From positions 8,961-72,960 of the forward strand of contig JAQUMH010000003.1 in assembly GCA_028718185.1 (NCBI GenBank): a stretch of DNA of 64,000 nucleotides, given 5' to 3'. Below the pieces are notes generated by a model. The model had not been told where the DNA came from. It did not search any database and worked only from the letters and a program-made list of their open reading frames with translations. Every line of letters begins with the position of its first letter. The first letter of the stretch is position 1. Of the stretch, positions 10,471 through 48,367 are shown piece by piece. Both the position numbers and the translations under genes were made by a program. The stretch is from Elusimicrobiota bacterium (lineage in GTDB: Bacteria; Elusimicrobiota; UBA8919).

Positions 10471-10537
10471 ACCATCCCACAATCCCACAATCCCGCTATC
10501 CCACGACCCCACCATTTCACTATCCTATATTTTATAG

Positions 10538-28580: not shown

Positions 28581-28682
28581 TGGTAGTTTCATGACACATC
28601 ACACATCACACATTACACAATTTTAAGGAAAGTTTTTATGAAAAACGTAATAGACGAAATTAAGAAGAACAAGGGGGTTAAT

Positions 28683-29630
28683 ATGCGCAAGATGTTAAGT
28701 GCAGTAACGTTAGCAGTAATGGTTGTATGTACTATATGTACAAGTAATGTACAAGCCGGTGTCGGCAGTTCAGCAATGCAGTTTTTAAAGGTAGGAGTAG
28801 GCGCCAAGCAGGAAGGTATGGGTGGCGCACAGGTAGCAGTAGCAGAAGATGTAAATAGCGTATACTGGAATCCTGCGGGATTAGGTTCAGTAAGTGCAAC
28901 GGAATTATCATTTATGCATTTATCATATTTTGAAGGAATAAGTTACGAATATTTAGCGATAGGCCATCCAGTAAATGAGAGTTCCACAATAGGCCTGCAA
29001 GTAATGTACCTTAATTATGGCAATATAGACAAAACATTAGAAGATGTCAATGGCGCATATGATACGGTAGGCAGCGTAGGTACTTTTGGTGCAAAAGATA
29101 TAGGTGGCGCGATAAGTTATGGCAAACAGGTAGATGAAACAATAAATGTAGGTGGCAGTTTAAAGATGGCGAGCCAGAAGATAGACACAGACAACACATC
29201 CGGATTTGGGATAGATTTAGGAGTAGAGTATGTTCCTGTAAAAGGCGGATTACAATTAGGCTTAGCAGTCCAGAACATAGGCAGTAAAGTAGGCAGTGAT
29301 AATTTACCCGGGAATATAAAAGCTGGATTAGGCAAGAAGCTCTCAGCATTTGAAGGTGAGAACAATTTGACGGTAGCAGCAGATGTCAATTATGGATTAG
29401 ACAGTGCGACAACAAGAGAGAACATAGGTTTAGAGTTAGTGATAGCCGAGATGATAGGAATCCGAGCAGGTTACAAGATAGGTTATGATGAAGAGACATA
29501 CACATTAGGCGGCGGTTTTAAGATAGCCGGCGAAAGTTCAACATTTAATATAGATTATGCATTTGTCCCGACAAAAGATTTAGGCGACACACACAGGATA
29601 TCGTTAGGAATAAGGTTTGGAAATAAATAA
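28683..29630 (+). CDS. PorV/PorQ-family-like outer-membrane beta-barrel protein
   Basis: The ORF track starts at 28638. The ATG at 28683 follows AAGGGGG and gives signal peptide MRKMLSAVTLAVMVVCTICTSNVQA. 'SSAMQFLKVGVGAKQEGMGGAQVAVAEDVNSVYWNPAGLG' is the N-terminal signature I associate with PorV-type barrels. The remainder has alternating beta-strand character. Confidence 0.8.
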   Translation: MRKMLSAVTLAVMVVCTICTSNVQAGVGSSAMQFLKVGVGAKQEGMGGAQVAVAEDVNSVYWNPAGLGSVSATELSFMHLSYFEGISYEYLAIGHPVNESSTIGLQVMYLNYGNIDKTLEDVNGAYDTVGSVGTFGAKDIGGAISYGKQVDETINVGGSLKMASQKIDTDNTSGFGIDLGVEYVPVKGGLQLGLAVQNIGSKVGSDNLPGNIKAGLGKKLSAFEGENNLTVAADVNYGLDSATTRENIGLELVIAEMIGIRAGYKIGYDEETYTLGGGFKIAGESSTFNIDYAFVPTKDLGDTHRISLGIRFGNK

Positions 29631-32700: not shown

Positions 32701-35700
32701 ATACAATAACACCGTCAGCCTCACCGGTTGGCTTTACGAAATATTCAAGTAAAGACGGGTATTTATCTTTACCCGGCACGTCAGGTTCTGAATATGTAGA
32801 TAGTTTAATCTGTGATATAGATAATGATGGCTTAAATGATTTTGTAATAATGAAAAGAGGGGTAGCTCCCGGATTAGTGTGGTACAAGAAAAATGGTAAT
32901 AACTGGGACCAAAAATCTATAGACCCTGATCTTTTAAAACTCGGGTGTTTTAGTCAACCTATAGACATGGACAATGATGGCGATATGGATATAGTAAATA
33001 TGGGAGATTATAATGAGCCCCGTGGATATTGGTGGGAGAACCCGGGTCCTCAAGCAGTAGTCACAACGACCAGATGGACTAAGCACATAATAAAAGACGA
33101 CAGCACAGGATTGTCAGTAACCTGGCATGATGCTTGTTTAGGTGATTTTGACGGTGATGGTGCTTTAGAGTTGGCAGCGTGGGGACGAGTGTATGCGTCT
33201 GGTGTAACAAGATTATATTTATGGGACGTACCCGCAGATGTAAAAACCCGTACTACAATATGGCCAAATCCTGCTACAATATATACAAAATCAAGTGCAC
33301 CCGAATGTGAAGGAATGGCAATTACCGATATAGATTTAGACGGCAAAGTGGATATAGTCGGCGGCGGCGGTTGGTTCAAACATGTAAGCGGAACGACATA
33401 TCAATTTAATTCAATAGAACCACTTGAAAGCGCCGTAAGAGGTAAATGCGCGGTTGGACAAATAATAAAAGGCGGCAGACCCGAAGTAGCTTTTTCAGCC
33501 GGTGATTTCACCGGTTTTGCAGCATGGTATGAATCTACAAATGCTGCCGCAACCACATGGACAAAGCATATAATAGATAGCAATGTAGTGCAGGCACATA
33601 GTCTTAAAATAGGTGATTTAGATACAGATGGCGATAATGATATATTTATAGCAGAAATGAGCCGCGTGGGGACTAATAGCTATCCCGCTGCAAGAATGAC
33701 GGTATACAAGAATGACGGTGCAGCAAGCCCAACATTTACAGCAACCATACTTACAACAGGACAAAACAACCACGAAGATGCGATAGGTGATTTAAATGGT
33801 GATGGCCGTCTTGACATATTACAGAAGAGTTATTCCGACCCTGGTAATGAAGATAATGAAATAGCGGTATGGATACAGACCGGTGGTGGGAAAAGAGGTC
33901 TAACGGATTGGACATATAAAGAGTTAGATGTAACCCGGGCACTTTATGGTGGTTGGTTTGAATGGTTTGGTTTAGCAGCAGTTGATTTAAATAATGACGG
34001 CTACAAAGATTTATTATCAGGAAAGTACAGCTACAAAAACCCTGGTGGTGATATGACCGGGACATGGACAAGAACAACGTTTCCTGTAAATGTAGATGCC
34101 AGTTTGGTTACTGATGTAGATGGCGATGCATATCCTGATGTAATAGGTTTTGGACTTACTGCAGCTTACACTCCTAATCCCGGTGTATACTGGTTAGAAA
34201 AAACAGGTGCAGGAGACACGACAGGCGACTGGACAGCTACAAAGGTAGCAGTCATACCGCCGACTCTACATTCACAATCACAGGGAATGAGGATGGCACA
34301 AATAGTTCCCGGTGGCAGGGAAGAGATAGTATGTACCGGTGATTTGCCTTATTCAGGCGATGGAGCCAGTAGCGGAAAATTGTATTACATCCAGATACCG
34401 TTAGTAAGTCCTCAAAACGGCAATTGGCCTGTTACACAGATAAGCAATAGTGTAAGCAATAGTTCAAACAATCAAGGAATCGCAGTAGGCGATATAGACA
34501 AAGATGGCGATTTAGATATAGCAGGAGTGCTGGGTAATAATAGTACAGTAGTATGGTATGAAAACCCCGGTGTTGCCGGACAAGGGAATTGGACAGTGCA
34601 TACCGTAGGCAACGCGACCCCGATAAATAACGTTACAAGTGCTGATGGACCTGACCGTGTCCAGTTGGCAGATTTGAACGACGATGGACGGCTTGACATA
34701 ATACTGACAGATGAGATATGGGATGGAACAAATCCACTTCGTGCGGAAAGCCGTACATATTGGTTTAATTGTCCTGCTACTCCAAAGACAGTAGCCAACT
34801 GGGGTACCTCAACAACGATAGTAAAGCAACAGTCAACTAACTCACTGGATGTAGCCGATATGGATTTTGATGGCGACATAGATGTAGTAACCGGCGAGCA
34901 TAAAGGTGCAAAAGAGACAGCTATCTGGGAAAACGACGGTAGTGCTACACCAAGTTTTACACAACATATAATATCATCAGGAAAAGAAAGTCATAACTCA
35001 GCATATTTATCTGATTTAGATGGCGATGGCGATTTAGACTTAGTAAGTATTACATGGGACGATTTCTTTTCTACGACCGGCGGTTTGATGTATATCTTGC
35101 GTAATAACAATACCTTTGGCGGTGGCGGTGGCAATCCTGTAGTAGCAATTACAAAACCAACCAATGGTCAGCAATTTGATCAAGGTTCTAATATATTAAT
35201 AGAAGCAACGGCAGTTGATGATGTTTCCGTTGCAAAAGTAGAATTTTATAATGGCACCACAAAACTTGGAGAAGACACCAGTTCGCCGTATAGTTACACA
35301 TGGAATAGTGTTCCATCAGGCGATTTTAACATAAGAGCGGTAGTAACAGACAATATCGGTTTAACAGGCAGTGCCCAGGTTACTATTAGTGTCAAAAACA
35401 CAGGCCAGCCTACTCTTCCTGTCGGTAAATGGGACATGGAAGGCACATCAGGCAGTTCAACAGTGAGTGATACATCCGGTAATAATAATAATGGAACATT
35501 GACCGGTATGGATACCAGTACTTGCTGGATTTCCGGTGAGGTAGGCACCGGTTTAAAATTTGACGGAGTAAACGATTATGTCAGCGTCCCTAATTCAACA
35601 TCGTTAGATATAAATGGTAGTCAGCTAACATTAATAGCCTGGGTTAGGGTGGACGCCATAGACCCCACGGATGTTAACGCACATCAAATATTTATAGCGA

Positions 35701-38700
35701 AACCGGCAGCAGACGGTAATCATACTGCACCGTATTTTGCATATTCCTTGCATGGTGTACGTGCCAGTGCAACGGAATTAACACCAAGGTTATGGTTGGA
35801 TATAGGCGGAACAGGAGTAAGTGTAGCAGCCACCCAGAACATAGGTATTGGTACCTGGTATCATTTGGCTGCTGTATATAATGGCGCTACAATGAAGATA
35901 TATGTAGATGGCGTAGAAAGTAACAGTTCTGCACAAACCGGTAATATAGCGGCACTTGGTACCGCGTTAAGGTTAGGTGCTAATGGCGGAGGAACAGAAA
36001 CTTTCAATGGAGCTATGGATGGAGTTAAGATATATAATATAGCGCTAACCGGCAGTGAGATATTAGCTGATAAGAATTTAACATCACAACCGCCGACAAT
36101 AAGCATAAGCACAATAGCGATAACAAATGGTAGTAATCCGCCTGCGACGGTCCGGATAGACGCGACAGCATCCGACAGTGACGGAACAGTAAGCAAAGTA
36201 GAATTTTTCAATGGTACCACTTTAATTGGAACAGACACCAGTTCTCCATATAGTTATACATGGAACCCTGTGCCTGCCGGGACTTACAGTATAACCGCGA
36301 CAGCGACTGATAATAGCGGAGCGACAGCGATAACAGCAGCGCAAATAGTAATAATAACCAACGGTTCCGCTTCACCGCAGCAGGCATATCCTACAGGTGT
36401 TGCTTGGTTGATAGATTCAGGAACGACAACAATACAGGCAGAAGATTACGATATGGTAACAAGCGGTTCTGCCTCCGGTGAGACATATTTTGATACAACA
36501 GTCGGCAATAGTGGTAATGAATACAGAACAGATGATGTAGATGTCCGGGCATGTATTGATACAGGTGCCGGATATCAGGTAGGCTGGACAAAACCTGGCG
36601 AATGGTTGGAATACAGTGTAAATGTTAATCAAGGTGGTGAATACAAAATAATACTAAGGGGTGCCAATGGGGATAAAAACGATGGCGGTCTTATGCATCT
36701 TGAATTTGGTACACATAATTCAGCACCATATAGGACAACACCATCAGTAAGCATACCGCCAACAGGCAGTTACGATACATGGGCTGATGTAGAAATTACA
36801 TCCAATGTTGTGCTTACCGCAGGTAACCAGATAATGAAGTTAGTTATGGAGAATAGTACAGCAATTGGCAATGGTGATTTTAATTATATTTCCTTAATAA
36901 AAATAGGTGCAGATACACCTAATGTAGTTTCAATACCGACAATAACCCCTGGAGCAGGGACATATTCAGGTTCTGTTACTGTAACAATTGATTGTGCAAC
37001 CAATGGAGCAACAAAAAGATATACAACGGATGGAACAGACCCGACATCATCGTCAACACTATATTCCGCACCTTTTACATTAACTGCAAGTGCAACAGTA
37101 AAAGCCCGTGCGTTCAAAGATACTATGACCGATAGTTCAGTAAATAGCGTGGCATATATAGTAACAAGCGTTTCACCGCAGCAGTCATATGGAAACATTC
37201 CGTCAGGTACTCCATGGCATATAGGAATAGGAACAACAACAATAGAAGTAGAAAATTATGATGAGGCAACTACTGGTCTGTCTGATGGTGAGACATATTA
37301 TGATACAACCCCCGGTAATCAAGGTGGAGCATACAGAACAAGTGAAGCAGTGGATATAGAGGCAGTCGTTGGAGCCAGTAATGGTTACGATATCGGATAT
37401 GTAGAACCTGGTGAGTGGTTAGAATACAGTATAAACGTAAATGAGAGTGGCAACTACAAAATAATAGTAAGCGCAGGCATATTAGGCACAGCAAATCCAT
37501 TCCACCTTGAATTTGGTCCACACGGTGCAACAAGTCTTGTAACACCATCAGTAACCGTACCTAATACCGGTGGATGGACGACTTTTACAGATGTAACAGT
37601 TGCAGATTCTGTAACGCTTGCTGCAGGCAACCAGATAATGAAGTTAGTTATGGAAAGCGGTAGTGTATCTAATAATGGTAATTTTGATTGCATCAAAATA
37701 GTAAGACTAACTGCGGATACAACCCCGCCGGTAGTAAGTGCTGTAACACCGGCAAACATATCCGGCAGTGGAACAGTGATAACATGGACGACAAATGAGC
37801 TTGCGAACAGTAAGGTAGAGTATGGTTTAACAACAAGTTATGGCAGTGCAACTCCGGTAACTGATGCTAATGGAGTATACTCACACAGTGTTACTCTAAC
37901 TGGTCTTACTGAGAGCACAGGCTATCATTACAGGATGGTGTCCGTAGATATGAACGGCAATACAACAACAAGCAGTGATTACAGTTTTACAACAATTCTT
38001 AATGACCCTAATCCGCCGGTGATAAGCAATGTATCAGCCGGAGTATCAATCAACACGGCAGTAATAACCTGGAATACCGATGAAAATTCCGACACACAGG
38101 TAGCGTATGGAACTACAACGGCGTTGGGCACCACAACTACGTTAGATGCGACACCAACCAGATTACACAGTGTCTCCATTAACGGGTTACAGAAAGGAAA
38201 GATTTATTATTACAGGGTCTATAGCCGAGACTCATCTAATAATCTTGCAACATCATCGCAGTATAGTTTTAAGACATATAACCTTAAGCACAAGATATAT
38301 ACCTATTACTACGATGACGGAACAACAACAACAAAGGTAGGAGCATCAGCAGCTGCGAGTTTGAAATTCAAGGTTCAGGTATATAATGTAGATGAGAACA
38401 GTATAGCAACTGACTATACCGGAACTTTAACTCTTACAACGAAAAACAGCAAGGGTACAGAACTGGATACAACAGATTCGACATTAGTCACAACAGATGC
38501 AGGTGAGAAGGAAGTCGCTATCCCGTTCCGTAGTGATATAAACACAGTAGAATTAAGTGGTGACACGACAGCGCCGGTAGTAATAAGCTTCAATGATATG
38601 TATATAGCAAAGTTAGTAGGATATCAAGGTGGAACAATACGTGGCGCCAACGGGTTAAAGATATTAATACCTACTGGAGTCTTGTCAGCAAACAAGTATC

Positions 38701-39326
38701 TTGCTTCAATAAAGACAAGTGCATCACCGGAAGTAAAGAACACAATGAAATATGTTAACACAGTTAATCCGATATGTTATGATTTTGGCGAATTAACATT
38801 TAACAATAATGCTCCGGTATTGGAGAACCAGATATTCACAAGAGCAGTAAACATAACAATACCATACACAACGGCAGATATAGGGATATTAAACGAAGAT
38901 GGACTTAGAATCTACTACTGGACAGGGACAGAGTGGGAATTGGTAACAGGAGTTCAGGCAGTAGACAAATCAAACAACACAATAACCGCAACCGTCAAAC
39001 ATTTCTCAACATATCGCGTATTGGGTAGCTATGTATCTTCAGATATGAGTAATGTTAAAGTTTACCCTAACCCATATAATCCCGCAACAGCGGTATTGGG
39101 TAAATTAAAGTTGATAAATCTGCCGATAAATAGTATAATAAAATTGTATAGCGTAACAGGTGAGCTCGTCCGTGAACTCAAAGAGACAGATTTTGGTAAC
39201 CTTGGTTGGCTCGAGTGGGATGGCAAGAATGATAATGGTGACAAAGTAGGTAAAGGAGTGTATATATACCAGATACAAGACGCTGCCGGTAACAAGAAGA
39301 CAGGGAAAATAGGACTGATAAAGTAA
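29730..39326 (+). CDS. Giant (3198 aa) secreted surface protein. Contains an N-terminal unassigned domain, Ig-like domains, 4 CHB_HEX_C-like domains, an unassigned ~380-aa module, a long FG-GAP/VCBS region, LamG/concanavalin-like domain, 2 CBM6-like modules, 2 Fn3, a stalk and a FlgD-Ig/T9SS type-A-like CTD
   Basis: GGAGG RBS and a signal peptide. There are many DxDxDGxxD loops (DIDNDGLNDF, DMDNDGDMDI, DLDTDGDNDI, DLNGDGRLDI and others). 'LKFDGVNDYVSVPNS...WYHLAAVYNGATMKIYVDG' is Laminin_G_3-like. The CBM6/CHB_HEX/Fn3 block and the last ~355 aa are collinear with 3..6377. Confidence 0.93.
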   Translation: MGRIIRCCMMFAVVMIGLSVVSQSAIGPGDIFKETYVWVSPPGSNCSNLWYRVTDPNATYTPIAGLCNDPTDFPNNAQYFSGVDLVGATRAELVVEMWGGHIGTSGKQIKVNNNTWIPIPENTDISSPECYLNFRYPAVAIPLNQLVSGTNRIDVTAGPQICGSFGWGQFAHYGLKLRIYYDASKTHPTGSITSPTASSTINDNPTISATVNTYSGGINRVDFIGYYDDFDEDGNGIYSQWHYRYVLRNGAFLGHIGTAISSPYSKTWDTSWVPDQAASSVKFMAVIVGNDGMCYATPEVAGITLARTTTSVKMYKPSNVPQGFSVTSGASPSSKFCDVVIPSNASTVTGARMSVVTWNGAEGGLTQSVTLAGTEIATSFPNAVDHEYGYSNITVSNSLITAGTKEFRVTAYHPSNTSWTHGPEIIWPGPVLFVQYNTGGIQSVADPAINPNGGTYSSAQTVSITCATGGAIIKYTTNGSDPSSTNGNVYSGPITLSSDTTLKAIATKSGSLDSNVVTANFTITAATTGDPIYYVPVNVAVGSYARYDKPVEVAVNFTQYLTALGVGGSLNDQSLRVRETDSTGTTVINDNVVFQFDEDSAYNASNNAIGTVTFIMSGTTNASATRYFRIFFDVDPTITKVNFTKQVTLTDNVDDEGQSSYKIETVNATYYYHKQGGGFSSMVDTQNNDWLGYHATGGSAGNYRGIPNMVYPASYFHPGFVNSSSSILNQGPIKIKYKTDSIDGLWSCTWEIFPKYARMTVTKKNSAYWFLYEGTPGGNLDVTGTQDYFYRSNDTSPQLCGSYPSSNILNGDIPAPEWVYFADGTINRSIYLINHQDDSSNDSYYQMENNMTVFGFGRTGVNSSLNPVVPAYYTIGFADSRDLTTTKNTIESSWRDLTETIGTPGSSSGPVKVATPQFSLPAGSYSGTQLVIITCGTSGATIKYTTNGSDPSTSGTSGTSPQVATISVSGTLRVIAVKSGSEDSYENTAVYTITPSASPVGFTKYSSKDGYLSLPGTSGSEYVDSLICDIDNDGLNDFVIMKRGVAPGLVWYKKNGNNWDQKSIDPDLLKLGCFSQPIDMDNDGDMDIVNMGDYNEPRGYWWENPGPQAVVTTTRWTKHIIKDDSTGLSVTWHDACLGDFDGDGALELAAWGRVYASGVTRLYLWDVPADVKTRTTIWPNPATIYTKSSAPECEGMAITDIDLDGKVDIVGGGGWFKHVSGTTYQFNSIEPLESAVRGKCAVGQIIKGGRPEVAFSAGDFTGFAAWYESTNAAATTWTKHIIDSNVVQAHSLKIGDLDTDGDNDIFIAEMSRVGTNSYPAARMTVYKNDGAASPTFTATILTTGQNNHEDAIGDLNGDGRLDILQKSYSDPGNEDNEIAVWIQTGGGKRGLTDWTYKELDVTRALYGGWFEWFGLAAVDLNNDGYKDLLSGKYSYKNPGGDMTGTWTRTTFPVNVDASLVTDVDGDAYPDVIGFGLTAAYTPNPGVYWLEKTGAGDTTGDWTATKVAVIPPTLHSQSQGMRMAQIVPGGREEIVCTGDLPYSGDGASSGKLYYIQIPLVSPQNGNWPVTQISNSVSNSSNNQGIAVGDIDKDGDLDIAGVLGNNSTVVWYENPGVAGQGNWTVHTVGNATPINNVTSADGPDRVQLADLNDDGRLDIILTDEIWDGTNPLRAESRTYWFNCPATPKTVANWGTSTTIVKQQSTNSLDVADMDFDGDIDVVTGEHKGAKETAIWENDGSATPSFTQHIISSGKESHNSAYLSDLDGDGDLDLVSITWDDFFSTTGGLMYILRNNNTFGGGGGNPVVAITKPTNGQQFDQGSNILIEATAVDDVSVAKVEFYNGTTKLGEDTSSPYSYTWNSVPSGDFNIRAVVTDNIGLTGSAQVTISVKNTGQPTLPVGKWDMEGTSGSSTVSDTSGNNNNGTLTGMDTSTCWISGEVGTGLKFDGVNDYVSVPNSTSLDINGSQLTLIAWVRVDAIDPTDVNAHQIFIAKPAADGNHTAPYFAYSLHGVRASATELTPRLWLDIGGTGVSVAATQNIGIGTWYHLAAVYNGATMKIYVDGVESNSSAQTGNIAALGTALRLGANGGGTETFNGAMDGVKIYNIALTGSEILADKNLTSQPPTISISTIAITNGSNPPATVRIDATASDSDGTVSKVEFFNGTTLIGTDTSSPYSYTWNPVPAGTYSITATATDNSGATAITAAQIVIITNGSASPQQAYPTGVAWLIDSGTTTIQAEDYDMVTSGSASGETYFDTTVGNSGNEYRTDDVDVRACIDTGAGYQVGWTKPGEWLEYSVNVNQGGEYKIILRGANGDKNDGGLMHLEFGTHNSAPYRTTPSVSIPPTGSYDTWADVEITSNVVLTAGNQIMKLVMENSTAIGNGDFNYISLIKIGADTPNVVSIPTITPGAGTYSGSVTVTIDCATNGATKRYTTDGTDPTSSSTLYSAPFTLTASATVKARAFKDTMTDSSVNSVAYIVTSVSPQQSYGNIPSGTPWHIGIGTTTIEVENYDEATTGLSDGETYYDTTPGNQGGAYRTSEAVDIEAVVGASNGYDIGYVEPGEWLEYSINVNESGNYKIIVSAGILGTANPFHLEFGPHGATSLVTPSVTVPNTGGWTTFTDVTVADSVTLAAGNQIMKLVMESGSVSNNGNFDCIKIVRLTADTTPPVVSAVTPANISGSGTVITWTTNELANSKVEYGLTTSYGSATPVTDANGVYSHSVTLTGLTESTGYHYRMVSVDMNGNTTTSSDYSFTTILNDPNPPVISNVSAGVSINTAVITWNTDENSDTQVAYGTTTALGTTTTLDATPTRLHSVSINGLQKGKIYYYRVYSRDSSNNLATSSQYSFKTYNLKHKIYTYYYDDGTTTTKVGASAAASLKFKVQVYNVDENSIATDYTGTLTLTTKNSKGTELDTTDSTLVTTDAGEKEVAIPFRSDINTVELSGDTTAPVVISFNDMYIAKLVGYQGGTIRGANGLKILIPTGVLSANKYLASIKTSASPEVKNTMKYVNTVNPICYDFGELTFNNNAPVLENQIFTRAVNITIPYTTADIGILNEDGLRIYYWTGTEWELVTGVQAVDKSNNTITATVKHFSTYRVLGSYVSSDMSNVKVYPNPYNPATAVLGKLKLINLPINSIIKLYSVTGELVRELKETDFGNLGWLEWDGKNDNGDKVGKGVYIYQIQDAAGNKKTGKIGLIK

Positions 39327-40887: not shown

Positions 40888-40896
40888 TATAGTGTA

Positions 40897-40977: not shown

Positions 40978-41056
40978 TTAGATACAATTTTTAAACAGAT
41001 ATTACTGCCGTGCATTAGATGGCAGTGATAAGTTGTCTGTTTAGGTTATAACTAAT

Positions 41057-41090
41057 CCGAGTTTCGGTATCCCCGTTAGCTCGGTTTTTT
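41057..41090 (+). terminator. Candidate intrinsic terminator/expression platform of the riboswitch
   Basis: CCGAG (41057-41061) ... CTCGG (41080-41084) is followed by TTTTTT (41085-41090). The loop segment CGGTATCCCCG can alternatively pair with the aptamer 3' strand CGGGTTACCG. The stem is short, so this is moderate at best. Confidence 0.45.
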
Positions 41091-41122
41091 GTTGTAAAGG
41101 TAATTAAGCAATAGAGGCAGCT

Positions 41123-42787
41123 ATGAAAAAAATCAATTACCAGATATTAAATACAGTCCAATGTCCGAGGTCCAATGTCCTGGGTCAACGGCTTATATTT
41201 ATATTTTTTGTTTTAGTATTGACCTTGGACCTCGGACTTCGGACCTCGGACAGTCTCTACGCTGCCTCTTCCGGCGGTCAGGTAGGTCAGTTCCTTTCCT
41301 GGGGTGCCGGTGCAAGGGCGCTTGCTATGGGTAAAGCGTTTTTAGCGATTTCAGATGATGCAACTGCTACATATTGGAACCCTGCAGGGTTAACTCAAAT
41401 TGAGCGTAAGGAATTTACCGGACTTTACGCTAAGTTGTGGTATGACACGACTTATAGTTTTATTTCGTATGTTCATCCGACAACAAAATCAGGAGTCTTC
41501 GGTGTTTCACTCGTATCCCTTACATCTTCTAAGTTTGAAAAAGTTTCAATTGAAAGAAATGCTCAAAATGATGTTGTTGATTTTAAAGTTTTAGGAACAT
41601 TTGATGACACGCAGACGGCAATAACCGGTTCATTTGCCAAAGACCTCTCCAAAAAACTTGCGTTTGGTGCTAATGCAAAGTATGTTTCTCATGTAATTGA
41701 TGTTTACACGGTTGCGTTTATAACATCTGACGTAGCTATTATGATGAAAGATGTTTATCCGAAACTAAAACTTGCAATAAATATACAGAATATGATATCG
41801 CTAAAGTTAGGTGATACTGATGATGATTTCCCGATTGTTTTGAAATTAGGTGCTGCTTACAGGGCGTTAAAAGATAAATTAATAGTTGCGCTTGATGTTG
41901 AAAAGGGTATGAAATCTAACATAAATTATCATATTGGAACCGAATATTGGGCAATGGATTATATCGCTGCAAGATTCGGATTTGATGTCGGTGATACCGG
42001 AATAAGAGAAACAACAGCAGGTATGGGCGGAAGATATAAAGATTATTCTCTTGATTTAGCAATGGCGTTTCATGAATTAGGGGCTTCTACAAGAGTCTCT
42101 GCAAGCTGGAAATTTGGTAAATCTTCCAGGACCGGCAAATTTGAAGAAATGGCAAAATATTTCAAAGAAGGAATGGAAGCATATAAAGTCGGAGAATATC
42201 TTGTTTCTATGGATCGTCTTTCAAAAGCGTATAGTATTGACCCGACAAATGAAGACCTTTCAAGAGCGATTCCGAGAATCCAGGTTGTTTCAACTTGGAT
42301 AAATGCTGAAAAAGGAACTTCCGTAGAAGCAGAAGCAACCAGGACAGGTATTGCTTATTATATTGAAAATGATATAAATAACGCGATTATGGCAATGAGA
42401 CATGCATATTCTTTACAGCCACAGAATGAAAATTTAAGACGTTTATTAAACGAAGTTGAAAAAGAAGCAGGGCAGACACTTACGCCGATTTCAGGTATTA
42501 AATCCACATCAGCTCCGGCACTCAGTTTAATTGAACAAAAACAGGAAAAAGCAAGAGAATATTTCTCAAAGAAACAATATGATGCTGCTATCAATGAATG
42601 TCAGGAAATCCTTATTATTGACTCAAAGAATTTATTAGCATTAAAGAGAATGGGTTCCTGTTATTACCAGATGGGTCTTAAAGATAAAGCGATTGCAACC
42701 TGGAAAAAAGTACTTGAAATTGATCCTACTGATAAAGATGTTCTGGATATTTTAAGAATGTTCGGAGGAGAAGGAGAACAAAAATGA
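41123..42787 (+). CDS. PorV-like outer-membrane barrel fused to C-terminal TPR repeats
   Basis: 'GQFLSWGAGARALAMGKAFLAISDDATATYWNPAGLT' matches the PorV-type N-terminal signature, as in 28683 and 51044. The C-terminal ~200 aa hold TPR-like repeats (e.g. 'YDAAINECQEILIIDSKNLLALKRMGSCYYQMGLKDKAIATWKKVLEIDP'). The stop overlaps the next start in ATGA. Confidence 0.8.
   Translation: MKKINYQILNTVQCPRSNVLGQRLIFIFFVLVLTLDLGLRTSDSLYAASSGGQVGQFLSWGAGARALAMGKAFLAISDDATATYWNPAGLTQIERKEFTGLYAKLWYDTTYSFISYVHPTTKSGVFGVSLVSLTSSKFEKVSIERNAQNDVVDFKVLGTFDDTQTAITGSFAKDLSKKLAFGANAKYVSHVIDVYTVAFITSDVAIMMKDVYPKLKLAINIQNMISLKLGDTDDDFPIVLKLGAAYRALKDKLIVALDVEKGMKSNINYHIGTEYWAMDYIAARFGFDVGDTGIRETTAGMGGRYKDYSLDLAMAFHELGASTRVSASWKFGKSSRTGKFEEMAKYFKEGMEAYKVGEYLVSMDRLSKAYSIDPTNEDLSRAIPRIQVVSTWINAEKGTSVEAEATRTGIAYYIENDINNAIMAMRHAYSLQPQNENLRRLLNEVEKEAGQTLTPISGIKSTSAPALSLIEQKQEKAREYFSKKQYDAAINECQEILIIDSKNLLALKRMGSCYYQMGLKDKAIATWKKVLEIDPTDKDVLDILRMFGGEGEQK
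41154..41253 (+). repeat. Heptamer-periodic palindrome (GTCCAAT/GTCCGAG units) embedded in the 5' end of CDS 41123..42787
   Basis: The left arm CAGTCCAATGTCCGAGGTCCAATGTCCTGGGTCAA (41154-41188) pairs with the right arm TTGACCTTGGACCTCGGACTTCGGACCTCGGACAG (41219-41253). A T-rich 30-nt loop encodes the hydrophobic core of the predicted signal peptide. Confidence 0.75.
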
Positions 42788-44742
42788 GAAAAGTAGTTAA
42801 GCTATTAAGTAATCAGGCGGTAGAGTGGGTTTTATTTGTTGTTTTACTACTATACCATTTTACCGCTATAATTTATGCTGAAACCGAATATTCCTCACTT
42901 CTGCAGGAAAAAATGAAGATTGAAAAAGAATATGAGAAAAGGATTATAGATATTGTAGAAAAAATTGTCGGTTCCGGAAAATCAGTTGTTTTTGTTTCAG
43001 CAGAATTACAGATTGTTAAAGCAACATCTCAGAAAAATCAGAGAGAGGGAAATGCCAGTCAAACGAATCCTTTTTCCGGGTTAAAATCCAAGCCGCAGGT
43101 TCTTCCGGGATTTGATGAAGACAGCGCAGCACCTGTTCAGCAAGCTTCTCCCGGTTCAGAAAAATCAGCAGGGTTAAGTCAGAGTATTGAACAAACTGTT
43201 ATTCCGACCATACTTAAGTTATTAAAAGTTACAATTCTTATTGACAAAGGTGTTCAGGAAGCCAAAAAGACTATTATTAAGGAAGCAATTAAGCAATCGA
43301 TTAGTTCTGACATAGGTGCGGATAAGCTTGTACTTGAAATAAAAGAAGCACCATTTTCGTCAGAAGCTTTTTGGGCACCTTTTATTAAACCAACTGTTTT
43401 AGTCCCGCTTATTTTAGGAGTAATATTTCTTATTGTTTTAATGGGACCGCTTCAGAGTGTACTTTTATCGTTTGCCTCAGCAATTAGAGAAGGTAAAAGT
43501 GGCGGTGATTTCACCGTTTTTTCAAAGACTGAATCAAAAGGTGAAACAAGTGGAACTGCGGGTGGCGGTGCAGGCGGTGGTGTTGCAGGCGGCGCGGGTG
43601 GAGTTGCAGATGCAGGTGGTGTTGGCGGTGAATCAATAACAGAATTAATGGAAAAGGAGGATAAGAAAGTGAAAAAGAAAGAAAAACCATTTGCATTTAT
43701 TACGAAAGATAACCTAAAAAATCTTATTTATCTTATACAGGAAGAGCCTCCGGAAGTGATTGCGTTGATTGTTACCTATCTTGAACCTGAACTGTCTGCG
43801 GATGTAGTTGCATCGCTTTCTTCTGATTTACAGCTTCAGACGGCAATATGTATTGCAAATGTGAAACTCAGTTCTGAGGAAGATGTATATAAAATCCATG
43901 AAAAGATTAAGGGCAAAATTGATTTTCTTGTCGGTGGTATAGATGTCTTCATAAAGATTATTGAACAAGTTGATAACAAGGTCAGGAAAGAAATGTCGGA
44001 TACCCTTGAAAAACAGTCACCAAGACTTGCAAGAAAAGTTCGTGAAAGTATTTTCATGTTTGAAGATTTGGCAAAACTGCCCGACCAGACAGTTCAGTTT
44101 ATTTTAAGGGAAATAAAAACTGATCAGATAGCAATTGCCTTAAAAGGTACCGGTGTTGAAGCGGTTATGCAAAAAGTTCTGGCAAATATGTCCGAAGGTG
44201 GTAGAGTTTTACTGAAAGAAGAAATGGATTTTGGTAAACCATACAGCCAGCAGCAAATCGGTGAGGTCCAGCGTGAAATAGAAAAAACAGTTAAAAAAAT
44301 GGAAAAAGATAAGAAAATTGTTTTAAGACAAGATGATGAATCAGAGAAACAAGGAGTTGAGGTTGAAGGTCGTCTTCAGAAACTGAATATTGGTGAAGAA
44401 TATAGAACAGTACAGCCACAGCAATCACAACAATCACAGCAGTCCCAACAATCTCAAAAAACTACCGAGTCGCCTCAAAGAGCAATTGAATACTACAATG
44501 CCGGTATTACTTCATATTCTTCCGGTAAAATCGACGATGCAATACATTATTTCCAGCGTTCGGTTGAATATAATCAGAATTTTTGGCAGGCTTGGCAATA
44601 TCTCGGGAGCTGTCTCTACTCAAAGGGAAGAATTGACGACGCTATAAAAGCATACGAGAAATCATTATCAGCAAACCCGTCAAACACGCAACTCCGTGAC
44701 TGGCTCCAGGGAGAAAAACAGAAAAGAGCAGCAGCAAAATAG
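42784..44742 (+). CDS. Two-TM membrane protein with a FliF/SctJ-like periplasmic segment, Gly-rich linker, FliG-like middle and C-terminal domains, Q/S linker and TPR repeats
   Basis: TM1 is at aa ~14-32 and TM2 at aa ~200-222. Aa ~300-510 read 'PPEVIALIVTYLEPELSADVVASLSSDLQ...VGGIDVFIKIIEQVDNKVRKEMSDTLEKQSPRLARKVRESIFMFEDLAKLPDQTVQFILREIKTDQIAIALKGTGVEAVMQKVLANMSEGGRVLLKEEMD'. This tracks FliG (cf. MFVFEDI/L, LALALKGA, NMSKRAA..L+DEL in characterised FliGs). The periplasmic 'IVGSGKSVVFVSAEL' and 'VTILIDKG' recall FliF/SctJ ring-building motifs. Confidence 0.75.
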   Translation: MRKVVKLLSNQAVEWVLFVVLLLYHFTAIIYAETEYSSLLQEKMKIEKEYEKRIIDIVEKIVGSGKSVVFVSAELQIVKATSQKNQREGNASQTNPFSGLKSKPQVLPGFDEDSAAPVQQASPGSEKSAGLSQSIEQTVIPTILKLLKVTILIDKGVQEAKKTIIKEAIKQSISSDIGADKLVLEIKEAPFSSEAFWAPFIKPTVLVPLILGVIFLIVLMGPLQSVLLSFASAIREGKSGGDFTVFSKTESKGETSGTAGGGAGGGVAGGAGGVADAGGVGGESITELMEKEDKKVKKKEKPFAFITKDNLKNLIYLIQEEPPEVIALIVTYLEPELSADVVASLSSDLQLQTAICIANVKLSSEEDVYKIHEKIKGKIDFLVGGIDVFIKIIEQVDNKVRKEMSDTLEKQSPRLARKVRESIFMFEDLAKLPDQTVQFILREIKTDQIAIALKGTGVEAVMQKVLANMSEGGRVLLKEEMDFGKPYSQQQIGEVQREIEKTVKKMEKDKKIVLRQDDESEKQGVEVEGRLQKLNIGEEYRTVQPQQSQQSQQSQQSQKTTESPQRAIEYYNAGITSYSSGKIDDAIHYFQRSVEYNQNFWQAWQYLGSCLYSKGRIDDAIKAYEKSLSANPSNTQLRDWLQGEKQKRAAAK

Positions 44743-44754
44743 GAGAGTAGAGCT

Positions 44755-44857
44755 CTTAGCGTTATAGAGTTTTAGAGTTCGTAGGGTTTTAGAGTTTATT
44801 GATTCAAATTCTTAACCCTAAAACCCTAAAACCCTATAACTCTATAACCCTATAACA
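44755..44857 (+). repeat. Octamer-periodic palindrome of the TATAGRG family, after the FliG-like gene
   Basis: The left arm is GTTATAGAGTTTTAGAGTTCGTAGGGTTTTAGAGTTTA and the right arm is TTAACCCTAAAACCCTAAAACCCTATAACTCTATAACCCTATAAC. Confidence 0.75.
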
Positions 44858-44875
44858 CGTACGGGAGGTTTTAAA

Positions 44876-47800
44876 ATGAGCGAAGAAAAAAAAGATGTTT
44901 TCGGAGGAGGGTTCCCGCCATTTCCACAGGAAAACAATTCAATGCCGTCTGCACTGGATTTACCACCATCATCTCAGGGTATGCCGCCTATGATTCCCAA
45001 TGCACCTTTCTCATCTCAGAATGTTTCTCCTTCGTCTAGCTCGTCGTCCGTTGATTATTCGAAAAAATTTCAGGAGATGGAACAGACATATATGAATATG
45101 GCGAAAATGCTTGAAGAAGTGAAAGAAAAACATGAAAAAGAAAAACATCTCTGGGAAGAAAAAATAAATTCCCTTCAAAAGGATTCACAGGAAGCATTAG
45201 ATGAATTTGCCGTTCGCCAGTTAAAAGAAGAAGAAGAAAGAACAAAAAAAGAGTCAGAAATCCGTGAAGAGAAATTGAAACTTGAAATGTCATTAAAAGA
45301 ACTTGGAAATAAATTAGAGGAGGCACGGGAAAAAACATTTCTTCAGGCACTTAAGTCAAAAGAAGATGAAGCAACTTCAGTGCGACTCGAAGCTGCTATG
45401 AAAGACGTGCAGTTAAAAAGCGTTCAGGAAAATGCATCACGCGAAATAGAAGCAGTTAAAATAAATTTAGGGGCAGCTTTATCGGAAAGGCTTGTAGCCT
45501 TACAAAAACAATATGAAAATAAACTTACCGATATTTATATAAAATCGTCCCAGAAGGAAAAGGAACTAATAGGCAAACTTGATGCTTTACAAACAGAAAA
45601 AGAGGCACTTTTAAAAAAAGCAGAACACGAGAAAAATCATCTTAATAGCGACTTTAATGATAAGATTTTAAAGAAACAAAATGAAATAAATCTAATCACA
45701 TCAAAATTAGATAATGTAAAAGATAATTACAATAAAATTCTTGGTTCACTCGAGAATGACCTGTCTTCTGCTAAAGCCAATATACTTATGGAAGTTGCAA
45801 AAACTAAATCAGAATACGAAGAAAAACTAAACCAGCTGAAAACAGAATATTCTGTGGTAGAGGGTCAAAAAATAACACTCAATGCACAATTAGAAGCAGA
45901 AAGGAAGATTTCAGCTGAAAAATTAAAAAATAAGGAAGACGAAATCGGCTCGCTGTATAAACAATTTACTGAAAGAGAAAACTTGTTAAAGGCTGATTTT
46001 GAAAAGCAAATTTCACAAAATATTGAAGATAAGAAACGGCTTGAAGGGGAATTCCGCCAGACAGTAGAAAAAACAAGTGAACGGGATGACGAATGGCGTT
46101 CAAAAATGGATGGCTTAAAAGTCGAATATGAAAATAAACTTAAAGATAAAGATTTACAATTACAAAAAGTTGAAATGGGTTTCAATAATAAACTTGCAGA
46201 ACTGAATAATATCCACCAGCAAAACGTTGACCAGTTAAAAGAAAATATTAACCAGCAAAACCAGCTGTTATTACAGGAAAGGACGAGATTAGAAAAACTA
46301 ATTTCAGAAAAAGACAAGGAAATGCTGGAAGTCAAAACCTCCCTTCAGGAGGAACTAAGAAAACAAAAAGATTTTTACGAAGAAGTGCTTTTAGAAAGGG
46401 AAGAAAAGATTTCCAGTATTAATGCAGATTTTGAAAAAAAAGAGGCAGCCATTCGTGCTGATTCTGACAAACGACTTGCTGATGCGTTGAATGAAAATCT
46501 GAAACTGGAAATGAAATTTAGAAATGAAATAGAAGTTTTAACCAACGAATATACTAAAAGACTTTCGGTATCACTTGATGAGAAAAAAAATATTGAGCAG
46601 GAATACCAATCTCGGCTAAGTTTTATTGAAAAAGAGCACTTGAGGGAAATGGATTTATTGAAGGAAAGGCAAATAACCGAAATTGAAAAACAGAAACAGG
46701 AATTCCAGAAAAAATTAGAAGCCGAAGGTGCTTCTAAAAATGAACTTGAGAAAAACCACCAGATTACTATAGAAAAAAAGGTGTCAGAATTTGAAAAAAG
46801 TTTAAGAGTCAGAGATGATGAGTGGCGATTAAAATATGAAGGGACAAAAAATGAATATGACGGCAAAATCAGGCAAATTGAATCAGAAAAAGCGTTACTG
46901 CAGCAGGGGATGTCGAAACAACTTGAAGAAATGAATAACAACTGGCTCAAAAAAATTCATTCTGAAAAATCATATATGGAAGAAAAAGTTGCAGCTCTTT
47001 CTTCCGAACTTAGTTCAAAGGAAAAGCGGTGGTCTGAAGAGAATGAAAAATACAAATTGCTAATGTCAGCTAAGGAAAACGATATTTTGTCGGTTAAAAG
47101 TCAGTACGAAAACCGTATTTCTGAAATGACAAAGACGGAGAATAATCTTAAGACGATGATTGAGAAAGTATCGGCAGATTTGGTTAATGAACGTGCAAGA
47201 TTTTCAAAAGAGATTTCTACCAAAACAAAAGAATATGAAGAAAAAATGCAAGACTATATCAAAAGTAAAGAAAACGAAATTTCAACCATTAAGATGGAAA
47301 CAGAAAATATCCGCAATAAATGGTTTGAAGAAAAACAACAATGGGTAGATGAACTGACAAAAAAGACAACATTTCCAGCTGAAGAATTAAAAACAATTAA
47401 TCTTAAAAAAGCAGAACTGGAAGCGATGGAACTTAAATTAAAACTCAGTCAAAGCGTATTAGATGAGCGTATTAATATGGAAAAACTTAAATATGATAAT
47501 ATGATTGTGATAAAAGATGACCAGTTGGAATCTCTTAAGAAGCAGTTGCAAAATGCAGAAATAGATATGGAAGGGAAAATAAAATCAGCATACCAGAAGA
47601 ATATGTTAGATAAAAAAATATTAGAAGAAAAAGAAATAAGCAGTTTGAACGACCAGTTGGAATCTACAAAGAGGCGGTTACAAAATGCAGAAGACAATGT
47701 AGATGAGAAAGTAAAATCTGCATATCAGAAGGACTCGTTAGATAAAAAAATGTTGGAAGAAAAAGAAAGAGAAATACGCAATTTAAATGGCCAGTTGGAA

Positions 47801-48367
47801 TCTCTTAAAACTCAATTAAAAAATACAGAAAAGGAGATAGAAGAAAAAACAGAAATGATGTTTCAAAATGCTTCAATAGATAAGTCAATGCTAAAAGAAA
47901 AAGATACGGAACTGAATAAACTAAAAGATAGCATTCAAAATATCAAACTGGTTAAACAACAATTTGAAAAAGAACTTGCCGGAATACAGGCAGAAAATAA
48001 GAGAAAAGAGGAAGAAATTTTAATGCTTCAAAAAAATGTGGAAAACAAACTGATTTCACAGAAAGAAAAAATGGAATCGGAATTTTCTGAGAAAATGACC
48101 GTTATCGTTGAAAAATACGAGCAGGAAAAGAAAGTAATTGAGGAATCATTCCTGAATGCAAATGCACAAAATTTATCAGAAATAGAAATATTGAAAAGTG
48201 AAATTGAAACTTTTAAGAATGCACAGGCATTCCAAAAAGCAATTCTTGATTCCAGAGATACTATCATGCATCCCGAATCACCTGTTGATGTTGAAACCGG
48301 GCAATCTGATAAAAAGAAAGATTCTGTATTGGGGAAAATACTGAATTGGCTTAATTCCCCTATATAA
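44876..48367 (+). CDS. 1163-aa coiled-coil protein with a Pro/Ser-rich N-terminus and no signal peptide or TM segment
   Basis: GGGAGG RBS. The composition is K/E/L/Q-rich with heptad character almost throughout. Three ~43-aa tandem repeats (QLESLKKQLQNAE...KSAYQK..LDKK.LEEKE) are encoded at ~47520-47900. Confidence 0.85.
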   Translation: MSEEKKDVFGGGFPPFPQENNSMPSALDLPPSSQGMPPMIPNAPFSSQNVSPSSSSSSVDYSKKFQEMEQTYMNMAKMLEEVKEKHEKEKHLWEEKINSLQKDSQEALDEFAVRQLKEEEERTKKESEIREEKLKLEMSLKELGNKLEEAREKTFLQALKSKEDEATSVRLEAAMKDVQLKSVQENASREIEAVKINLGAALSERLVALQKQYENKLTDIYIKSSQKEKELIGKLDALQTEKEALLKKAEHEKNHLNSDFNDKILKKQNEINLITSKLDNVKDNYNKILGSLENDLSSAKANILMEVAKTKSEYEEKLNQLKTEYSVVEGQKITLNAQLEAERKISAEKLKNKEDEIGSLYKQFTERENLLKADFEKQISQNIEDKKRLEGEFRQTVEKTSERDDEWRSKMDGLKVEYENKLKDKDLQLQKVEMGFNNKLAELNNIHQQNVDQLKENINQQNQLLLQERTRLEKLISEKDKEMLEVKTSLQEELRKQKDFYEEVLLEREEKISSINADFEKKEAAIRADSDKRLADALNENLKLEMKFRNEIEVLTNEYTKRLSVSLDEKKNIEQEYQSRLSFIEKEHLREMDLLKERQITEIEKQKQEFQKKLEAEGASKNELEKNHQITIEKKVSEFEKSLRVRDDEWRLKYEGTKNEYDGKIRQIESEKALLQQGMSKQLEEMNNNWLKKIHSEKSYMEEKVAALSSELSSKEKRWSEENEKYKLLMSAKENDILSVKSQYENRISEMTKTENNLKTMIEKVSADLVNERARFSKEISTKTKEYEEKMQDYIKSKENEISTIKMETENIRNKWFEEKQQWVDELTKKTTFPAEELKTINLKKAELEAMELKLKLSQSVLDERINMEKLKYDNMIVIKDDQLESLKKQLQNAEIDMEGKIKSAYQKNMLDKKILEEKEISSLNDQLESTKRRLQNAEDNVDEKVKSAYQKDSLDKKMLEEKEREIRNLNGQLESLKTQLKNTEKEIEEKTEMMFQNASIDKSMLKEKDTELNKLKDSIQNIKLVKQQFEKELAGIQAENKRKEEEILMLQKNVENKLISQKEKMESEFSEKMTVIVEKYEQEKKVIEESFLNANAQNLSEIEILKSEIETFKNAQAFQKAILDSRDTIMHPESPVDVETGQSDKKKDSVLGKILNWLNSPI

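Follow-up and report, generated by a model that had tools for sequence, protein, structure and literature searches.

What does a protein that joins a FliF-like ring-building domain to the torque-bearing part of FliG do in a stretch of genome that carries no flagellar gene? The question is raised by a 64,000-nucleotide stretch of DNA from an Elusimicrobiota bacterium (assembly GCA_028718185.1, contig JAQUMH010000003.1, positions 8,961 to 72,960; G+C content 31-44%), which we refer to as a whole as the window. Positions 42784..44742 of its + strand hold an ATG-start open reading frame (ORF) for a 652-aa FliF(RBM3)-TM-FliG_MC-TPR protein, where TM is a transmembrane segment and TPR a tetratricopeptide-repeat module. 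The original prediction, made without database searches, had read this gene as a natural FliF-like/FliG-like fusion with a TPR tail, devoid of FliG_N and in a non-flagellar setting, a reading that Pfam/NCBIfam matches and homologs support. The ORF and every string that had been quoted from it are present as claimed. The answer that we favor, with moderate confidence, is that the fusion is the rotor subunit of a ring that is independent of flagella and is engaged by a MotA/MotB stator of flagellar type.

Since the protein has one strong TM, an RBM3-like fold and FliG_MC matches, its parts can be put in order, from the N terminus, as a signal peptide or first TM (TM1), an RBM3-like domain, a TM, a Gly-rich linker, FliG_MC, a linker with a QQS repeat, and TPRs. 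The quoted strings fall along this order: IVGSGKSVVFVSAEL at aa 61-75, VTILIDKG at 149-156, a Gly-rich run at 257-282, IFMFEDL at 423-429, IAIALKG at 449-455, ANMSEGGRVLLKEEMD at 467-482, and the QQS repeat at 546-558.

The FliG-like half

Residues 407-514 (44002..44325) match FliG_C (PF01706) with 90.8 bits (cutoff 23.3; E=8e-26). Upstream of them, a FliG middle (ARM_M) domain followed by helix_MC spans aa 302-395 (43687..43968), within which residues 313-379 match FliG_M (PF14841) with 43.6 bits (cutoff 25; E=3.5e-11). A profile built from 22 family members recovers the FliG_MC of Thermotoga maritima (1LKV) at E=4.6e-60, and the same structure comes first (E=3e-11) when the AlphaFold2 (AF2) model of the fusion is searched with Foldseek, with other FliG structures, including 1QC7, next in line. 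The expected resemblance of aa ~300-510 to the middle and C-terminal domains of FliG is thus borne out. A best match to MgtE_N (PF03448) or to a generic helical repeat, which had been named as the outcome that would tell against FliG, was rejected: MgtE_N reaches only 13.7 bits (cutoff 25.9; E=0.09).

The N-terminal, FliF-binding domain of FliG is missing, as had been proposed. PF14842 finds no match in the fusion, and the FliG equivalog model TIGR00207 aligns only from its position 91 (model positions 91-333 on aa 281-519), with 120 bits against a cutoff of 226.7. From this late start and sub-cutoff score, we conclude that the fusion lacks FliG_N and is not an orthodox FliG.

We compared FliG motifs residue by residue across 35 family members. 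The Gly-Gly hinge is invariant (aa 384-385 in the window fusion), the MFxF hinge motif is retained (as IFMFED, aa 423-428, in the window fusion and ILTFED in the bulk clade), and so is the LLKE core of the torque helix, which reads LLKEE in the window fusion. The FliM-binding EHPQ…R motif, on the other hand, occurs in none of the 35, its place being taken by EEPPE…C in the window fusion and DEPW…E in the bulk clade, and the R160-equivalent is never Arg.

The torque-helix equivalent, ANMSEGGRVLLKEEMD (aa 467-482; 44182..44229), was assigned from the alignment with T. maritima FliG, the family motif table, and co-variation with MotA. At the five positions that correspond to what we take to be the stator-contacting charged residues of Escherichia coli FliG (K264, R281, D288, D289, and R297), the window fusion has K, G, E, E, and S (three of the five), E479 and E480 being the equivalents of D288 and D289. 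The Glu at the D288-equivalent is constant family-wide and the acidic residue at the D289-equivalent is kept only in the window's subfamily; at the R281-equivalent, all members have Gly, and Ser, Thr, or Leu stands in for R297. Of the charges that the original prediction had placed in the torque helix, the acidic pair stands; the only other position that is retained is the K264-equivalent. The Arg does not: that of NMSEGGR, found only in the window's subfamily, lies two residues past the R281-equivalent Gly. R281 and D288/D289 are confirmed as stator-contacting residues in published work (PMC12505986).

The FliF-like half

The periplasmic domain (aa 36-192; 42889..43359) was identified as a FliF RBM3-like ring-building domain through PF08345 in homologs, a profile against PDB sequences, AF2 modeling, and Foldseek. 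The window fusion does not itself reach the threshold of PF08345 (YscJ_FliF_C), and the window protein alone has no FliF Pfam match. Three of its homologs (P0013, P0015, and P0018) pass that threshold over the full model, with 26-27 bits (cutoff 23.8). When a profile of aa 1-232 is compared with PDB sequences, the six matches at E<10 are five FliF and one SpoIIIAG, which align at both halves of RBM3, including the RGD.L.V..PF string that precedes the TM.

The AF2 model agrees. Its topology, α-β-β-[disordered insertion, aa 86-133]-β-β-α-β, with an invariant LPG inside the insertion, is the one that was described for FliF as split RBM3/SpoIIIAG (PMC4768692). In a Foldseek search with the N-terminal model, FliF structures fill the top 18 places, nearly all of them S-ring/RBM3 (E ~1e-4; TM-score on the target ~0.5). 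An RBM-like fold, whose absence would have spoken against the original prediction, is therefore present. That prediction had called the periplasmic loop FliF/SctJ-like, and only the FliF part holds, in its RBM3/SpoIIIAG-type form. SctJ-type RBM1/2 was rejected: PF01514 has no match in the window fusion or in seven homologs, the periplasmic region is only ~160 aa long, and EscJ and PrgK are weaker fold matches (E 3e-3 to 6e-3) that rank behind the RBM3 of FliF.

A two-TM arrangement had also been proposed. The second segment (aa 195-234; 43366..43485) is strong, with a Kyte-Doolittle maximum of 2.83 and a position conserved in all members, and AF2 models the TM as a single helix (aa 203-237). 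The first hydrophobic segment (aa 1-32, …AIIYA|ETEY; 42784..42879) resembles either a Sec signal peptide or TM1. Judged by hydropathy and N-terminal sequence in 35 members, many of which show AxA-type sites, it looks like a cleavable Sec signal peptide in most of them, and the mature fusion may thus have one TM.

Beyond the membrane, the C-terminal helices with which FliF binds FliG_N are replaced by a disordered cytoplasmic linker (aa 240-298; 43501..43677; pLDDT <50), first Gly-rich and then Lys/Glu-rich, that runs directly into FliG_M and varies in length and composition across the family. FliG_C is followed by a low-complexity linker with the QQS repeat (aa 517-561; 44332..44466; pLDDT <50) and by a cytoplasmic TPR module (aa 564-651; 44473..44736; Pfam TPR_1, TPR_2, and TPR_16; pLDDT ~90). 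Both the Gly-rich tether of the FliG-like part and the QQS linker with TPRs behind it were found as anticipated. The AF2 model as a whole has a mean pLDDT of 68, and its structured domains reach 75-94. Taken together, the fusion lacks all the parts by which FliF and FliG are tied to the rest of the flagellum, namely RBM1/2 (which face the export gate and rod), FliG_N, and the FliM-binding EHPQR.

Family size, spread, and selection

The fusion is not an isolated oddity. We found 25 full-length-type homologs with the same architecture (31-70% identity), the best of them in metagenome-assembled genomes (MAGs) of Elusimicrobiota. An exhaustive search of 1.84 billion representatives yielded at least 68 clusters at 50% identity, ~36 with the full architecture (counted in the top 150) and ~32 with RBM3-TM-FliG_MC and no TPR tail, which is missing in about half of the clusters. 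When proteins are scored with a family profile devoid of the TPRs, no fusion falls below 317 bits and no canonical FliG rises above 132. The family extends to one MAG of Firestonebacteria and one labeled Ignavibacteria, and its members are named in NCBI only as "FliG C-terminal domain-containing protein." A genome scan with the fusion protein alone returned close relatives plus TPR noise (L004-L006) and nothing else. We compared 14 chosen pairs; in those with synonymous divergence (dS) of 0.36-0.73, the ratio of nonsynonymous to synonymous substitution (dN/dS) is 0.07-0.15, which shows that the fusion is under strong purifying selection.

An operon shared with a flagellar-type stator

In the window, the fusion directly follows a gene on the same strand for a PorV/PorQ-family outer-membrane β-barrel with a C-terminal TPR region (41123..42787; NF033709, 122 bits against a cutoff of 90; Pfam UPF0164 and TPR), hereafter PorV-TPR. 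Its stop codon overlaps the ATG of the fusion (ATGA), the overlap being preceded by a GGAGGAGAAGGAG stretch. On the other side lies the gene for a 1163-aa cytoplasmic protein, which we call X (44876..48367, +). X has a conserved Pro-rich N-terminal motif (EEKK…PPxP), no TM, and no significant Pfam or NCBIfam family. Past its Pro-rich N terminus it is rich in E, K, Q, and L (EKQRDL fraction 0.56) and, from this composition, is presumably a coiled coil. There is no terminator-like site on the + strand between fusion and X, and scans of 40400-48600 for sigma-70 promoters and terminators gave sites no commoner than in shuffled sequence.

No MotA or MotB is encoded within the window; the stator was found in relatives. 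Locus L007 (Elusimicrobia UBA5214) reads, in order, a giant 14,454-aa protein, PorV-TPR, fusion, X, FlbD, MotA, a MotB-like protein, MotB, and PPDK. Its MotA scores 262 bits to MotP and 220 to PomA, and matches Clostridium sporogenes MotA at E=1e-52. Judged by its sequence, the stator partner is a genuine flagellar-type MotAB with FlbD, not one of the ExbB/TolQ or GldL type. Two MotB-like genes follow MotA in this locus (15680-16306 and 16401-17051), the first without the channel Asp (YTGM) and the second with it (SD).

This arrangement is widespread. We scanned species-representative genomes with the L007 MotA and an Elusimicrobiota MotA alignment, which yielded 86 distinct MotA loci of Elusimicrobiota type. 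In 64 of these, the fusion lies upstream in the same operon; six are unlinked, despite at least 7 kb of upstream sequence, and 16 have too short an upstream region. Linkage is therefore seen in 64/70 informative loci. PorV-TPR lies directly 5' of the fusion in nearly all loci, X is found 3' of it in most (it is missing from L015 and from six variant loci), and in stator-linked loci the stop codon of X usually abuts or overlaps the start of FlbD. Clostridial loci from the same scan have a separate, canonical FliG ~7 kb upstream of MotA.

The operon also varies. In L027 (complete genome CP096137.1; 7646-9985), X and FlbD form one reading frame, with the FlbD domain at aa 705-761 of 779, owing either to genuine fusion or to a frameshift introduced in sequencing. 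A 235-aa gene for a lipoprotein-like product (…FAAC|G) sits immediately after MotB in this locus (11585-12292) and in 61 others, all of the bulk clade; it has no Pfam family, is ~85-93% identical among top matches, and does not follow MotB in L007 or L095. Three further genes upstream of PorV-TPR in L027 were considered as cassette members and dropped because they are poorly conserved. In six variant cassettes (L100, L102-L105, and L135), FlbD comes right after the fusion; X is missing, and PorV-TPR could not be detected. A divergent paralogous set (L165-L167), made of a PorV-like protein, a TPR-less fusion, and its own MotA'B', sometimes shares a MAG with the main type (JBDRON01). In the Firestonebacteria MAG (L009/L160, 4260-8862), the fusion is flanked by a divergent CheW-CheY-CheA-MCP-CheC operon and an AAA/T2SSE-like ATPase.

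In the window's own lineage, the stator operon is separated from the cassette and yet present in the same genomes. The closest relatives (L001/L010, L002, and L003), whose fusions are 62-66% identical to that of the window, share its synteny and have no stator within 10 kb. In the JBBAAR01 MAG, the cassette is in L001 and FlbD-MotA-MotB on another contig (L095); in DMMW01, the cassette is in L003 and MotA in L096, a locus that ends at MotA; and in the CG06 MAG PEVQ01, a cassette fragment is in L155 and the stator in L097. The L095 stator is embedded among housekeeping genes, with RadA, IspD/F, CysS, and SpoU upstream and PPDK downstream. Because PPDK follows the stator in L007 as well, this suggests that the cassette moved away from an ancestral cassette-stator-PPDK order. 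The stators of L007 and L095 both have MotA residues of the R90/E98 type, a MotB with the channel Asp (within YADLMT in L095) and an OmpA-like, peptidoglycan-binding domain, and an adjacent FlbD; in L095 MotA, the residues at the R90 and E98 positions are kept. The expectation that a stator would be encoded elsewhere was thus correct as to place, on other contigs in the JBBAAR01 and DMMW01 MAGs, and correct as to MotA, one of the types that had been offered; the ExbB and GldL types do not apply.

Co-variation of rotor and stator

In the flagellar motor, MotA R90 pairs with FliG D288/D289 and MotA E98 with FliG R281 (PMC12505986). We asked how the corresponding positions behave in the linked loci, numbering MotA on the E. 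coli sequence, whose residues 90 and 98 are R and E, in line with published work. In Elusimicrobiota, Arg or Lys always occupies the R90-equivalent, and LLKE persists in the rotor. At the E98-equivalent, 45/52 linked loci have Gln, as opposed to Glu or Asp in flagellated outgroups. In the two linked loci whose rotor helix has a basic residue in NMSxGx[K/R], Glu is kept at the E98-equivalent, as it is in pairs from the window's lineage, and a basic rotor helix and Gln at that position are never found together in one locus. This pattern fits a functional interface that has been retained minus one of its two salt bridges.

Flagella in Elusimicrobiota

No flagellar structural or export genes were found in the window or in the approximately nine loci, around cassette or stator, that we annotated gene by gene. 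This agrees with a preprint (10.1101/2022.07.08.499144) reporting that only a few Elusimicrobiota genomes have complete flagellar sets and that most free-living members have no flagellar structural genes, yet retain motAB, flbD, and fliG. The non-flagellar context claimed for the gene therefore holds as far as these loci go; a complete flagellar set, which would have made it an ordinary if fused gene, appears in no annotated locus. The authors of the preprint call the role of MotAB unclear and do not explain the co-occurrence. "Candidatus Obscuribacterium" DUR003 (L133), which the preprint counts among the members retaining these genes, has FlbD-MotA-MotB and a weak X-like match. More generally, 11% of non-motile species have rotor proteins but no filament genes, and such proteins may have alternative functions (PMC12199754). 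A further study (PMC12204202) mentions Elusimicrobia only with regard to TolA and CpoB. Our literature search turned up neither the fusion architecture nor the operon that the fusion shares with PorV-TPR, X, FlbD, and MotAB, nor the co-variation.

Neighboring genes in the window

Upstream of the cassette, on the + strand, lies a gene for a giant, 3198-aa surface protein (29730..39326) with Ig, CBM, and FG-GAP domains (Pfam) and a type-A C-terminal domain (CTD) of the T9SS (type IX secretion system; TIGR04183, 26.8 bits against 23). It is preceded by a second PorV/PorQ-family barrel (28638..29630, +; NF033709, 173 bits against 90). Giant proteins are also encoded 5' of the cassette in relatives (9,318 aa in L013, 14,454 in L007, and 18,879 in L010, at 1-7658, 1-7823, and 1-7838 of these loci, respectively), and they end in a homologous CTD (YPNP…KGGY…IGIIH/K), which is the part that matches type A. 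Downstream of X, and likewise on the + strand, a protein with a weak type-B CTD (CHU_C; 48486-50849) is followed by a PorP/SprF-like barrel with LysM (51044-52315), both recognized by Pfam and below the NCBIfam cutoff; the pair is syntenic in the closest relative, L010. Bacteroidota likewise pair type-B cargo with cognate PorP/SprF. To our knowledge, the T9SS is not generally credited to Elusimicrobiota.

A histidine-kinase-like protein is encoded further downstream, and a response regulator with GGDEF (55066-55998) and a PilZ-TPR protein (57816-59702) lie 10-13 kb beyond the cassette. In flagellar motors, FliG/MotA are targets of PilZ proteins, which makes control of the fusion module by cyclic di-GMP conceivable. 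In the first part of the window (1-27844) lies a run of very large genes whose surface-protein products (2101, 805, 1498, 1074, and 867 aa) carry Ig, CBM6/35, FG-GAP, and F5/8-C domains; scattered among these are genes for three AraC-type regulators, a GH123-like enzyme, and an MttB-family methyltransferase.

Palindromic repeats resembling repetitive extragenic palindromes (REP; units ~TAGGGTTTTAGAG / CTCTAAAACCCTA) occupy intergenic spacers right after stop codons, at 10414-10471, 39355-39402, 44757-44852, and 54959-55031, with single units at 17494, 52462, and 55582. A 13-mer of the repeat has 20 matches in place of ~2 expected. One copy lies between fusion and X, where the spacer folds at -41.8 kcal/mol (z = -5.2).

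A model for the fusion as a rotor

How might such a rotor work? The RBM3 domains would oligomerize into an S-ring-like ring, tethering as many FliG_MC units below the membrane as there are RBM3 domains and thereby building in a 1:1 ratio of MS-ring to FliG ring. A MotA5B2 stator, its channel Asp and peptidoglycan-binding domain intact, would push the conserved LLKE(E) helix through the charge pair of the MotA-R90/FliG-D288 type. There would be no FliM/FliN switch, and X, perhaps with the TPR tail, would stand in for the C-ring or scaffold. The most speculative steps concern the output. The periplasmic face of the ring might work with the TPR domain of the PorV-like barrel, which might in turn bind the T9SS-type CTDs of the giant surface proteins, with ion-motive force driving export, anchoring, or gliding-like surface movement of these giant adhesins. 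Such a system would be a functional counterpart of GldLM/SprB in Bacteroidota, assembled from rotor and stator parts of the flagellum.

That the output of the motor is coupled to PorV-bound giant surface proteins is something we infer only weakly. The full proposal, which we put forward tentatively and as possible rather than probable, is that the fusion is the rotor of an unrecognized ion-driven machine: a free-standing MS-ring/FliG/MotAB unit, without type III export, rod, hook, filament, or FliM/N, wired to PorV and moving or secreting giant CTD-bearing adhesins, which would amount to a gliding or secretion engine of flagellar parts in a phylum where most members lack flagella. We nevertheless see a substantial chance that the fusion cassette represents a new type of machine.

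Several observations weigh against a rotor with this output. Oligomerization into a ring, rotation, and contact with MotA would all follow from homology, and the link between PorV and giant adhesins from gene neighborhood alone. The canonical torque-helix charges survive only in part, one acidic residue being left in the bulk clade. AF2 gives models of moderate confidence (mean pLDDT 68-71), in which the collar-like insertion is disordered, and the co-variation count ignores kinship and may reflect few independent events. As to MotAB and flagellar genes in the window's lineage, beyond the window itself, we relied on relatives with fusions that are 62-66% identical. The Firestonebacteria locus lacks a PorV-TPR gene. 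It is only in the window's wider clade that the cassette has giant genes beside it; the bulk-clade operon has none. Finally, none of the T9SS core components SprA/Sov, GldK/L/M/N, and PorU/Z was found among the ORFs of the window.

Alternative explanations

The alternative that fares best keeps the stator and gives up sustained rotation and motility. The fusion would then be a trans-envelope force transducer, using ion-motive force to energize or gate the PorV-like barrel in the manner of TonB/TolA for uptake, secretion, or outer-membrane tethering, or else a mere anchor for an X scaffold. This would make sense of PorV-TPR being the most constant partner. In most lineages, both the charges of the torque helix and the E98-equivalent of MotA have decayed, perhaps a sign that the interface has changed; no axial or rod parts were found that could carry rotation outward; and 5:2 motors are known to power non-rotary processes at the outer membrane (PMC12204202). 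Nevertheless, the stator is of the flagellar MotA/PomA/MotP type, not ExbB/TolQ, and the rotor retains both the ring-forming RBM3 and the FliG hinge elements that are used in a rotating C-ring. We therefore regard a transducer as rather unlikely, while taking it as the most serious competitor of the rotor.

A second alternative would make the module an accessory of type IV pili and twitching, or of another chemotaxis-controlled surface behavior. It has been suggested tentatively for magnetotactic Elusimicrobiota in the same preprint (10.1101/2022.07.08.499144), which records genes for type IV pili and chemotaxis (che) in those genomes too and cites motAB mutations that affected twitching; the chemotaxis operon and T2SSE-like ATPase beside the Firestonebacteria fusion point the same way. 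However, no pil genes adjoin the cassette in the window or in the annotated loci, and its constant neighbors are PorV-TPR, X, FlbD, and MotAB, which leaves this explanation improbable.

Could the gene simply be the ordinary fliF and fliG of a flagellated organism, fused by chance? A few Elusimicrobiota have complete flagellar sets (10.1101/2022.07.08.499144), and in Salmonella and Vibrio, FliF-FliG fusions obtained by engineering are functional (PMC4768692 and PMC11481574). Against this, the fusion lacks RBM1/2, FliG_N, and EHPQR and falls far short of the FliG equivalog cutoff, neither the 64-kb window nor the annotated loci hold flagellar genes, the clostridial loci of the same scan show what a normal, separate FliG looks like, and most lineages that bear the cassette are reported to be aflagellate (10.1101/2022.07.08.499144). 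We consider this very improbable.

Weakest of all is the notion, to which we give next to no credence, of a functionless relic of a lost flagellum or of a helical-repeat/MgtE_N-like domain without a rotor role: filament-less rotor genes may be remnants (PMC12199754), and the charge set here is partly degraded, but the low dN/dS and the synteny, with full-length ORFs, a conserved operon in at least 64 species-level loci, and invariant hinge motifs, effectively refute a relic, while MgtE_N matches at E=0.09 against 8e-26 for FliG_C.

Significance and comparison with known systems

Natural FliF-FliG fusion was known before from Chlamydiaceae (PMC4768692), and aflagellate Elusimicrobiota had already been reported to have motAB, flbD, and fliG together (10.1101/2022.07.08.499144). 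The present analysis turns that loose co-occurrence into a defined module, made of a single-chain RBM3-FliG_MC, PorV-TPR, X, and FlbD-MotAB, which is conserved in dozens of species and bears signs of rotor-stator co-evolution. If it rotates, it is possibly the simplest FliG/MotAB motor, with a built-in 1:1 ratio of MS-ring to FliG and no switch complex, and it would be an attractive minimal system for studies of torque generation, as well as a handle on the evolution of the flagellar motor module and on its separability from the type III export apparatus. Should it serve to move or secrete giant adhesins, it would be a new entry among the few ion-driven envelope machines and might explain motility-like behavior in Elusimicrobiota, such as magnetotaxis without flagella. 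Depending on where the roots of the FliG and MotA trees fall, the module could have arisen by radical reduction of a flagellum or be a surviving relative of a pre-flagellar rotor-stator module.

Two known proteins resemble parts of the fusion. The N-terminal domain of MgtE is a distant FliG-like helical fold, and the fusion has no MgtE transporter domain. SpoIIIAG has the same split RBM3-type fold with an insertion and forms a large periplasm-like ring without a flagellum, although it matches only weakly (E=0.04), is not coupled to FliG or a stator, and acts in another cellular context.

The T9SS/gliding machinery of Bacteroidota (GldLM, GldKN, PorV, and SprB/SprF; PMC8986121) resembles the proposed machine as a whole. 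It too has an inner-membrane 5:2 motor driven by ions, together with barrels of the PorV family and giant surface proteins with type-A or type-B CTDs, and here too a type-B CTD protein adjoins a PorP/SprF-like barrel. It differs in that the motor of the fusion cassette would be MotAB with a FliF/FliG-derived ring, not GldLM/GldKN, in that SprA/Sov, PorU, and other core genes are not found in the window, and in that the coupling proposed here is drawn from neighborhood.

Closer still are other FliF-FliG chimeras. Engineered ones, in Salmonella and in Vibrio (FliFG, used for S-ring cryo-EM), show that 1:1 tethering is compatible with assembly and rotation (PMC11481574 and PMC10941966). Unlike the fusion described here, they consist of full-length FliF and FliG, joined artificially within complete flagella. 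The Chlamydiaceae fusion is, like ours, a natural covalent chimera from non-flagellated bacteria, shortened relative to FliF, with a signal sequence and a TM. It has kept the opposite set of parts: at ~330 aa, it has an RBM2-like domain, no SpoIIIAG-like RBM3, and FliG_M only, has no reported MotAB partner, and was proposed to be linked to the injectisome (PMC4768692), whereas the fusion of Elusimicrobiota keeps RBM3 and FliG_M plus FliG_C with the torque helix, has a TPR tail, and is coupled to MotAB by its operon. NF004606, which we take (with some uncertainty) to be the model for the chlamydial fusion, matches the window fusion only weakly, with 17.4 bits against a cutoff of 297.

The nearest relative of all is the rotor-stator core of the flagellum itself (FliF, FliG, and MotA5B2, with FlbD/SwrD). 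In the fusion cassette, this core would be reduced to one polypeptide without RBM1/2, FliG_N, or the FliM-binding motif, and with the R281 and R297 equivalents lost; it has gained a TPR tail and two new partners, the PorV-TPR barrel and X, and no export gate, rod, hook, filament, or C-ring genes lie near it. What it shares with the flagellum is homologous RBM3, FliG_M, and FliG_C domains, the Gly-Gly hinge, the MFxF motif, the acidic core of the torque helix, and an operon partner that is likewise a flagellar-clade MotA/MotB with a FlbD family protein. Even the gene order is familiar: the fliF-fliG…flbD-motA-motB order of Firmicutes and spirochaetes is echoed here by fusion…flbD-motA-motB.

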